Origin: Escherichia coli
GTDB lineage: Bacteria > Pseudomonadota > Gammaproteobacteria > Enterobacterales > Enterobacteriaceae
DNA: 64,000 nt
Strand: one strand, 5' to 3'
NCBI RefSeq assembly: GCF_003334315.1
Contig: NZ_QOWR01000003.1
Under the pieces are notes generated by a model. That model was not told the origin of the DNA and searched no databases. It saw nothing but the letters and a program-made list of their open reading frames with translations. Positions 43,226 through 43,241 of the stretch are shown one piece after another (the stretch's first letter is position 1; each line of letters opens with the position of its first letter). The position numbers were made by a program, and so were the translations under genes.

Positions 43226-43241
43226 TGTGATCTTTATCACA
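43226..43241. promoter_or_regulatory. Perfect-consensus CRP-type palindrome
   Basis: TGTGA-tcttta-TCACA, centred about 86 bp upstream of maa ATG. Confidence 0.55.

Follow-up and report, generated by a model that had tools for sequence, protein, structure and literature searches.

At the lac promoter a class I CRP site at -61.5 is combined with a LacI-family repressor, and class I positions in general are near -61.5, or -71.5, -82.5 or -92.5. A different arrangement is found at promoters controlled by CytR together with CRP, where CytR binds between two CRP dimers and relies on protein-protein contact. A third system is treBC, which to our knowledge is the sole TreR operon in curated databases, and Horlacher and Boos are said to have described in 1997 a TreR palindrome directly upstream of the treB -35. 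The regulation and the physiological role of maa, the gene encoding maltose O-acetyltransferase, have as far as we know been obscure since its discovery. Here we consider a palindrome in front of maa in Escherichia coli. The explanation that best accounts for it as a whole, and which we regard as likely to be correct, is that it is the CRP-binding site of a maa promoter that is activated by CRP, the global regulator of the response to sugar starvation, and probably repressed by TreR, the trehalose repressor.

The treBC operon of E. coli and its relatives resembles maa in having a CRP box, an identical GGGAACGTTCCC and then the core promoter, and in treB of Klebsiella and Proteus the distance from CRP to the -10 is likewise about 48 bp by hand count. 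The two promoters differ in spacing, the operator centre being 18 bp from CRP and just upstream of the -35 at treB, but 24 bp from CRP and overlapping the -35 at maa. They also differ in the strength of the CRP box (4.75 bits, which is poor, at treB of K-12 vs. a near-perfect 19.4 at maa, by the weight matrix described below), and the E. coli operator has one mismatch at maa, unlike that at treB. By analogy, maa could also be likened to lac, as both would have one CRP dimer about 61 bp upstream, a weak sigma-70 promoter and a sugar-specific LacI-family operator; however, lacO1 is located downstream of the start whereas the maa operator overlaps the -35, and the lac CRP site is imperfect whereas the core at maa is perfect. 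With the CytR/CRP promoters (e.g., deoP2) maa shares a LacI-family operator directly adjacent to a CRP site, but it has a single CRP site and a strong stand-alone palindrome, and cooperativity is not implied. The exact TGTGA-N6-TCACA of maa is furthermore found in the perfect-core ChIP-seq sites of caiT, ycfQ/bhsA, ygcW/yqcE, galP, yibI, mtlA and fdoG, and the only thing that sets the maa box apart from these is the neighboring TreR-type operator.

The DNA analyzed, referred to as the window, is a stretch of 64,000 nucleotides of the E. coli chromosome in which the genes acrB-tomB-hha-maa-ylaC-pdeB follow each other in this order, all on the plus strand (Table 1). The 2.1 kb around the site matches 5,424 of 5,426 complete E. 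coli genomes (at least 80% of the length, 95–100% identity). In K-12 MG1655 maa occupies 479367–479918 on the minus strand of NC_000913.3, and a window position x corresponds to position 523238 - x of that sequence. The CRP box follows the hha stop codon after 77 bp. In some E. coli records maa is annotated with 223 aa instead of the 183 aa found here, from a start 120 bp upstream, within the promoter region described here; the start was probably called too far upstream, in alleles that have an indel in the spacer.

Table 1. Features of the hha-maa region, in window coordinates.
Feature	Position	Strand	Basis or remark
hha coding sequence	42930..43148	+	ORF list and RefSeq annotation of identical E. 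coli region
CRP (cAMP receptor protein) binding site, 16-bp core TGTGATCTTTATCACA	43226..43241, centre 43233.5		exact consensus, published tables, conservation
TreR-type (LacI-family) candidate operator GGGAACGTTCTC	43252..43263, centre 43257.5		one mismatch (T 43262) to palindrome GGGAACGTTCCC
Putative weak -35 hexamer TTCTCT (3/6 vs. TTGACA)	43259..43264	+	17 bp upstream of -10; spacing only
Putative -10 hexamer TACTGT	43282..43287	+	conserved TAnnnT spacing from operator centre
Predicted transcription start, G 43294 or A 43296	43294..43296	+	position of -10
Shine-Dalgarno GGAGG of maa	43309..43313	+	read from sequence; block conserved in alignment
maa coding sequence, maltose O-acetyltransferase, 183 aa	43320..43871 (ATG 43320)	+	ORF list, RefSeq, homologues with Pfam Mac and Hexapep

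The preliminary description of this DNA had pointed to TGTGATCTTTATCACA at 43226–43241 as a CRP palindrome with both half-sites exact, located about 86 bp upstream of the maa start, and had called such perfection uncommon among natural sites. The sequence and a scan of the window bear this out, as all 10 of 10 core positions match the CRP consensus, the distance from the centre of the box (43233.5) to the maa ATG is 86.5 bp, and both half-sites are exact in only 8 of the 107 distinct CRP sites of a published ChIP-seq table. With both strands searched, the box is the sole exact TGTGA-N6-TCACA of the 64-kb window, where 0.04 would be expected from shuffles (4 of 100 shuffled windows contained an exact match). 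If up to two mismatches are allowed the window has 14 matches against 25.6 expected, and since the relaxed matches are not above expectation it is the exact site alone that stands out. The 107 distinct 16-mers of the ChIP-seq table (Haycocks et al., 2015) were turned into a symmetrised weight matrix, applied leave-one-out. By this matrix the maa box ranks third of 107 with its 19.4 bits, the median being 13.0, and the runner-up in the whole window reaches 11.9 bits. The flanks outside the 16-bp core match the 22-bp consensus poorly (cta/cag vs. aaa/ttt). The maa box illustrates that when an intergenic CRP box has a perfect core, it is very likely to be real. Elsewhere in the window, GATGACGACGATCACA at 9915–9930 is identical to an intragenic CRP ChIP-seq site listed for ybaT (Haycocks et al., 2015), and is thus a second published CRP-bound site in the window.

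Occupancy of the maa site by CRP has been recorded before. By genomic SELEX, maa was among 119 newly identified CRP targets, and the supplement of that study gives, for the maa/hha spacer, the box TGTGATAAAGATCACA, which is the reverse complement of TGTGATCTTTATCACA and stands beside coordinates 479104 and 479228 (Shimada et al., 2011; PMC3105977). On NC_000913.3 the CRP box is at 479997–480012. If a shift of 776 bp is removed, which we take to be the offset between the U00096.2 and U00096.3 assemblies, 479228 is the centre of the maa box. A second, weak CRP box, AGCGATACAACTCACC, is listed under the same maa/hha entry (Shimada et al., 2011; PMC3105977); its reverse complement, GGTGAGTTGTATCGCT, is found at 43350–43365 of the window, in the first maa codons, and the sequence/coordinate pairs of the table seem to have been swapped. 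In vivo, TGTGATCTTTATCACA is listed with maa among the 111 high-confidence CRP ChIP-seq sites of ETEC H10407 (Haycocks et al., 2015; PMC4287617, Table 1). Whether maa is an established CRP target, which the preliminary description could not say, is thereby settled for occupancy by two independent data sets, and the absence of CRP occupancy that it had named as refuting is contradicted by them. According to the published tables cAMP-CRP occupancy of the maa site is established both in vitro and in vivo. The CRP site before maa is already known, and as it is present in published genome-wide CRP maps it adds nothing new by itself. In the accessible literature we found no study of whether maa expression responds to CRP or cAMP, no values for maa mRNA or a maa reporter in crp, cya or treR strains or with trehalose, and no mapped maa start; maa is not mentioned in the supplement text of a ChIP-exo study (Latif, 2018), and the supplements of a 2026 carbon-source atlas that includes D-trehalose have no gene-level entry for maa or treB.

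We collected maa loci from 12 other Enterobacteriaceae by means of Maa homologues; with K. pneumoniae included, the comparison covers 14 lineages. The tomB-hha-maa-ylaC synteny is kept in all 12 of the other Enterobacteriaceae fetched, and the hha-maa spacer (131–215 bp) is essentially unalignable between genera save for three islands, namely the CRP box, the palindrome and a TAnnnT -10. A box with at most two core mismatches is present at the same position in 12 of the 14 lineages, with an N6 spacer that varies freely, as can be seen from E. ruysiae (TGTGACCTCCGTCACA), S. enterica (AGTGACATAGATCACA) and Kluyvera (TGTGATTACTATCACA), and the orthologous boxes score 14–18 bits in 10 of 12 other lineages; the exceptions are Pluralibacter with 6.5 bits and K. 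aerogenes with no box. The same is seen within E. coli, where the half-sites are invariant and the spacer is polymorphic (CTTTA, CTTCA, ATTCA) among six alleles of 95–100% identity. Half-sites that are retained around a free spacer, in a region that otherwise cannot be aligned, are what marks a site that binds a protein and is under selection. The distances are also kept: from the CRP centre to the palindrome centre there are 24.0 bp in ten lineages and 25.0 in two Salmonella, from the palindrome centre to the start of TAnnnT 24.5 bp in each of the 10 operator-bearing lineages outside Salmonella, and from the CRP centre to the conserved -10 48.5 bp, or 47.5 bp in K. pneumoniae, while in Salmonella the best -10 sits 3 bp further from CRP. 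These comparisons indicate that selection maintains the CRP box at a set distance from a conserved -10. The plasmid-borne maa homologues of Rahnella, Erwinia and Plesiomonas have neither the CRP box nor the palindrome, so the module is tied to the hha-maa locus of the chromosome.

The putative maa promoter is weak, with hexamers that match 3 of 6 consensus positions each. A stringent sigma-70 consensus scan of 43050–43400 gave no promoter and did not pick up TACTGT, and SELEX with RNA polymerase holoenzyme only gave peaks at the ylaC, hha and tomB promoters and none in the maa/hha spacer. Together, the weak hexamers, the lack of a scan match and the lack of a peak with polymerase alone fit an activator-dependent promoter. 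With 48.5 bp between CRP and the -10, CRP would occupy a class I position near -61 and the palindrome would cover the -35. Counted from the predicted starts, which correspond to about 479942–479944 on the minus strand of NC_000913.3, the two sites would be at about -60.5 to -62.5 (CRP) and -36.5 to -38.5 (operator), and the operator overlaps the putative -35 with its right half. The suggestion of the preliminary description that the box is in a plausible activator position thus gains support from phylogenetic footprinting, with CRP near -61 from the predicted start.

The preliminary description missed the TreR-type operator adjacent to the CRP box. The palindrome GGGAACGTTCTC begins 10 bp downstream of the CRP box, so that the centres are 24 bp apart, and consists of the halves GGGAAC and GTTCTC around a central CG at 43257/43258, as is typical of the LacI family. 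The left half-site of the E. coli maa operator is perfect. The mismatch of the operator is fixed in the sampled alleles, one strain having an outer-position change besides, and the E. albertii operator has three mismatches. The perfect form, GGGAACGTTCCC, is found at the orthologous position in 9 of the 13 lineages sampled first (loci L004–L008 and L010–L013, about 1428–1450). These same 12 bp are found at treB: the E. coli maa operator matches the treB 12-mer at 11 of 12 positions, and nine other lineages match it at 12 of 12. The treR-treB spacer of K-12 contains TGTGATCTTCGCTGCGTTTCGGGAACGTTCCCGTTTTT, in which a CRP-like box (a CRP half-site) is followed after 4 bp by the exact 12-mer, and the sequence of the treB promoter agrees with the reported placement of the palindrome upstream of the -35. 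Further treB upstream regions were obtained from misfiled chromosomes and megaplasmids in a plasmid collection. The layout of TGTGA, 15 bases and the palindrome is found there with an exact GGGAACGTTCCC in K. pneumoniae, Aeromonas caviae and Proteus mirabilis, and the treB promoters of Duffyella and Pantoea keep the core as TGGAACGTTCCA/G. Across 26 fetched loci, exact copies of GGGAACGTTCCC occur once per locus and solely in maa or treB promoters. As the treB promoters in which the same 12-mer stands beside a CRP box range from E. coli to Aeromonas, and given the placement attributed to Horlacher and Boos (1997), we suggest that GGGAACGTTCCC is most likely the TreR operator. TreR orthologues of at least 85% identity are on record for Citrobacter, Salmonella and Enterobacter.

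In Klebsiella the TreR-type box of the maa promoter has been replaced by another LacI-type palindrome, (G/T)(A/T)AACCGGTTTC. In K. pneumoniae the CRP box is perfect (TGTGATAGACATCACA) and stands 47.5 bp from the -10, TATACT, with GTAACCGGTTTC between the -35 and the -10 (locus L031, 1142–1153); here the exact operator is present at treB and the TreR-type box is missing at maa. In K. aerogenes GAAACCGGTTTC is found just upstream of the -10 (locus L027, 1153–1164) and the CRP box is lost. On these sequences, maa of Klebsiella looks like a case of repressor swapping at one promoter.

Alternatively, CRP could regulate maa alone, the E. coli palindrome being a decayed relic or the site of a factor other than TreR. 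This is the rival that survives best, although we find it rather unlikely. It would agree with the fixed core mismatch of GGGAACGTTCTC in E. coli and the three mismatches in E. albertii, with the operator turnover that does happen, as seen from the different LacI-type palindrome of Klebsiella, and with the searchable literature, in which TreR and maa are not linked. On the other hand, E. coli has kept 11 of 12 operator positions, which are invariant in the sampled alleles save for the one outer change, and a perfect left half-site. Moreover, pseudo-palindromes are common for LacI-family repressors, as exemplified by the secondary treB operators of Aeromonas and Pantoea, which have two mismatches. 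Nevertheless, given the core mismatch in E. coli and the three mismatches in E. albertii, TreR may not bind the operator in Escherichia.

Returning to a maa promoter under both CRP and TreR, we found no TreR-maa link in the searchable literature, where the string GGGAACGTTCCC itself turned up in one paper only, on CebR of Streptomyces. The TreR regulog of RegPrecise for Enterobacteriales comprises 12 genomes, 8 regulons and 8 sites, i.e., one per genome, and the maa operator is evidently not part of this reconstruction; it could have been overlooked, or examined and rejected. Judged from these counts and the searchable literature, the TreR link to maa is apparently unreported. TreR itself has been the subject of a genomic SELEX. 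A genomic SELEX study of FlhDC has both the maa/hha and the treB/treR spacers among its 44 intergenic peaks (PMC9962212, Table 1). The two promoters share the element GGAACGTTC, which is possibly why the peaks coincide there. The list also has fruB, epd, adhE, ptsH and aceB, which we take to be classical Cra targets. It is speculation, but the overlap might be due to an AACGTT palindrome of LacI type or to a protein that co-purifies.

We propose that cAMP-CRP, bound near -61, would recruit RNA polymerase to the weak sigma-70 promoter (TTCTCT / TACTGT) by class I activation, i.e., through contact of CRP with the C-terminal domain of the alpha subunit of RNA polymerase. The palindrome over the -35 would be bound by a repressor of the LacI family, most likely TreR, which would block RNA polymerase, and trehalose-6-phosphate would release TreR from the maa operator. 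In this way maa would be on when glucose is absent and trehalose is being catabolized. A rationale, which we can only infer, is that TreC splits trehalose-6-phosphate into glucose-6-phosphate and free glucose, the latter being a substrate of Maa, which, going by work from the Boos laboratory, reportedly acetylates glucose and maltose. TreR control may be weaker in Escherichia than in Salmonella, Citrobacter and Enterobacter because the operator mismatch is fixed there (and there are three mismatches in E. albertii), while the CRP box has become perfect. Stated in full, and put forward tentatively since it may well turn out otherwise, the idea is that maa is an unrecognized second TreR transcription unit in most Enterobacteriaceae, with a class I CRP promoter, a perfect operator over the -35 and induction by trehalose-6-phosphate, the operator eroding in Escherichia and having been replaced by another LacI-type box in Klebsiella. 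If this is true, the orphan enzyme Maa gains a context as a safety valve for the free glucose released by TreC, and confirmation would make the TreR regulon larger than treBC and tie sugar acetylation to the catabolism of a disaccharide phosphate. The control of maa by TreR together with CRP, with lineage-specific decay or replacement of the operator, is a modest but testable new lead.

CRP could also bind in front of maa without any effect on transcription, either because the site is non-regulatory or 'chromosome-shaping', or because the palindrome arose by chance, which we consider very unlikely. As 34% of the ChIP-seq CRP sites are intragenic, occupancy alone is no proof of regulation, and one exact match is found in 4% of shuffled windows. 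However, the half-sites are conserved across genera with unalignable flanks, the distances to the -10 and to the operator are fixed to the base pair, and the weak core promoter appears to depend on an activator. Even less probable is that the CRP site serves a minus-strand promoter whose transcript would run antisense to the hha 3′-end. Minus-strand TATAAA and TAAAAT hexamers do exist at 43199–43192, about 40–48 bp from the centre of the box, but they are in a part of the spacer without conservation between genera, the spacing is non-canonical (about -46 to -48), and the conserved partners of the box are all on the maa side. The least credible proposal is that the inverted repeat acts as RNA, as a terminator or stabilizing hairpin of hha or a structure in tomB-hha-maa read-through; hha has no canonical terminator after it, about 10 pairs form if G-U is allowed and a terminator scan flags the minus strand, but the plus strand has no U-run, folding of the 186-nt spacer is not better than that of shuffled sequences (z = -0.25), and across species the half-sites TGTGA/TCACA are kept as sequences, with several substitutions that break pairing (e.g., AGTGA...TCACA in Salmonella, CGTGA...TCACA in C. 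freundii), which is the pattern of a protein site and not of a helix.

The region does not qualify as an intrinsic terminator of hha, as 43050–43400 has no plus-strand match, the stem is A/T-rich and lacks a U-run, and the fold has the same z of -0.25. Downstream of ylaC, paralogues of a ribosomal protein (Pfam Ribosomal_L31) are found between this gene and pdeB in Salmonella, Citrobacter and Enterobacter (loci L004–L008, about 2670–3120), accompanied by a ribosomal L36 paralogue in all of these except S. bongori (L004); at this locus the ribosomal paralogues are absent in E. coli, Kluyvera and Klebsiella. Finally, E. coli ML35 has an IS5-like element (ISKpn26 family) in the maa promoter, after a position equivalent to about 43283 of the window (locus L026, 2589–3763). 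The insertion is at or adjoining the putative -10, and the CRP and TreR-type sites are thereby cut off from maa in this strain.
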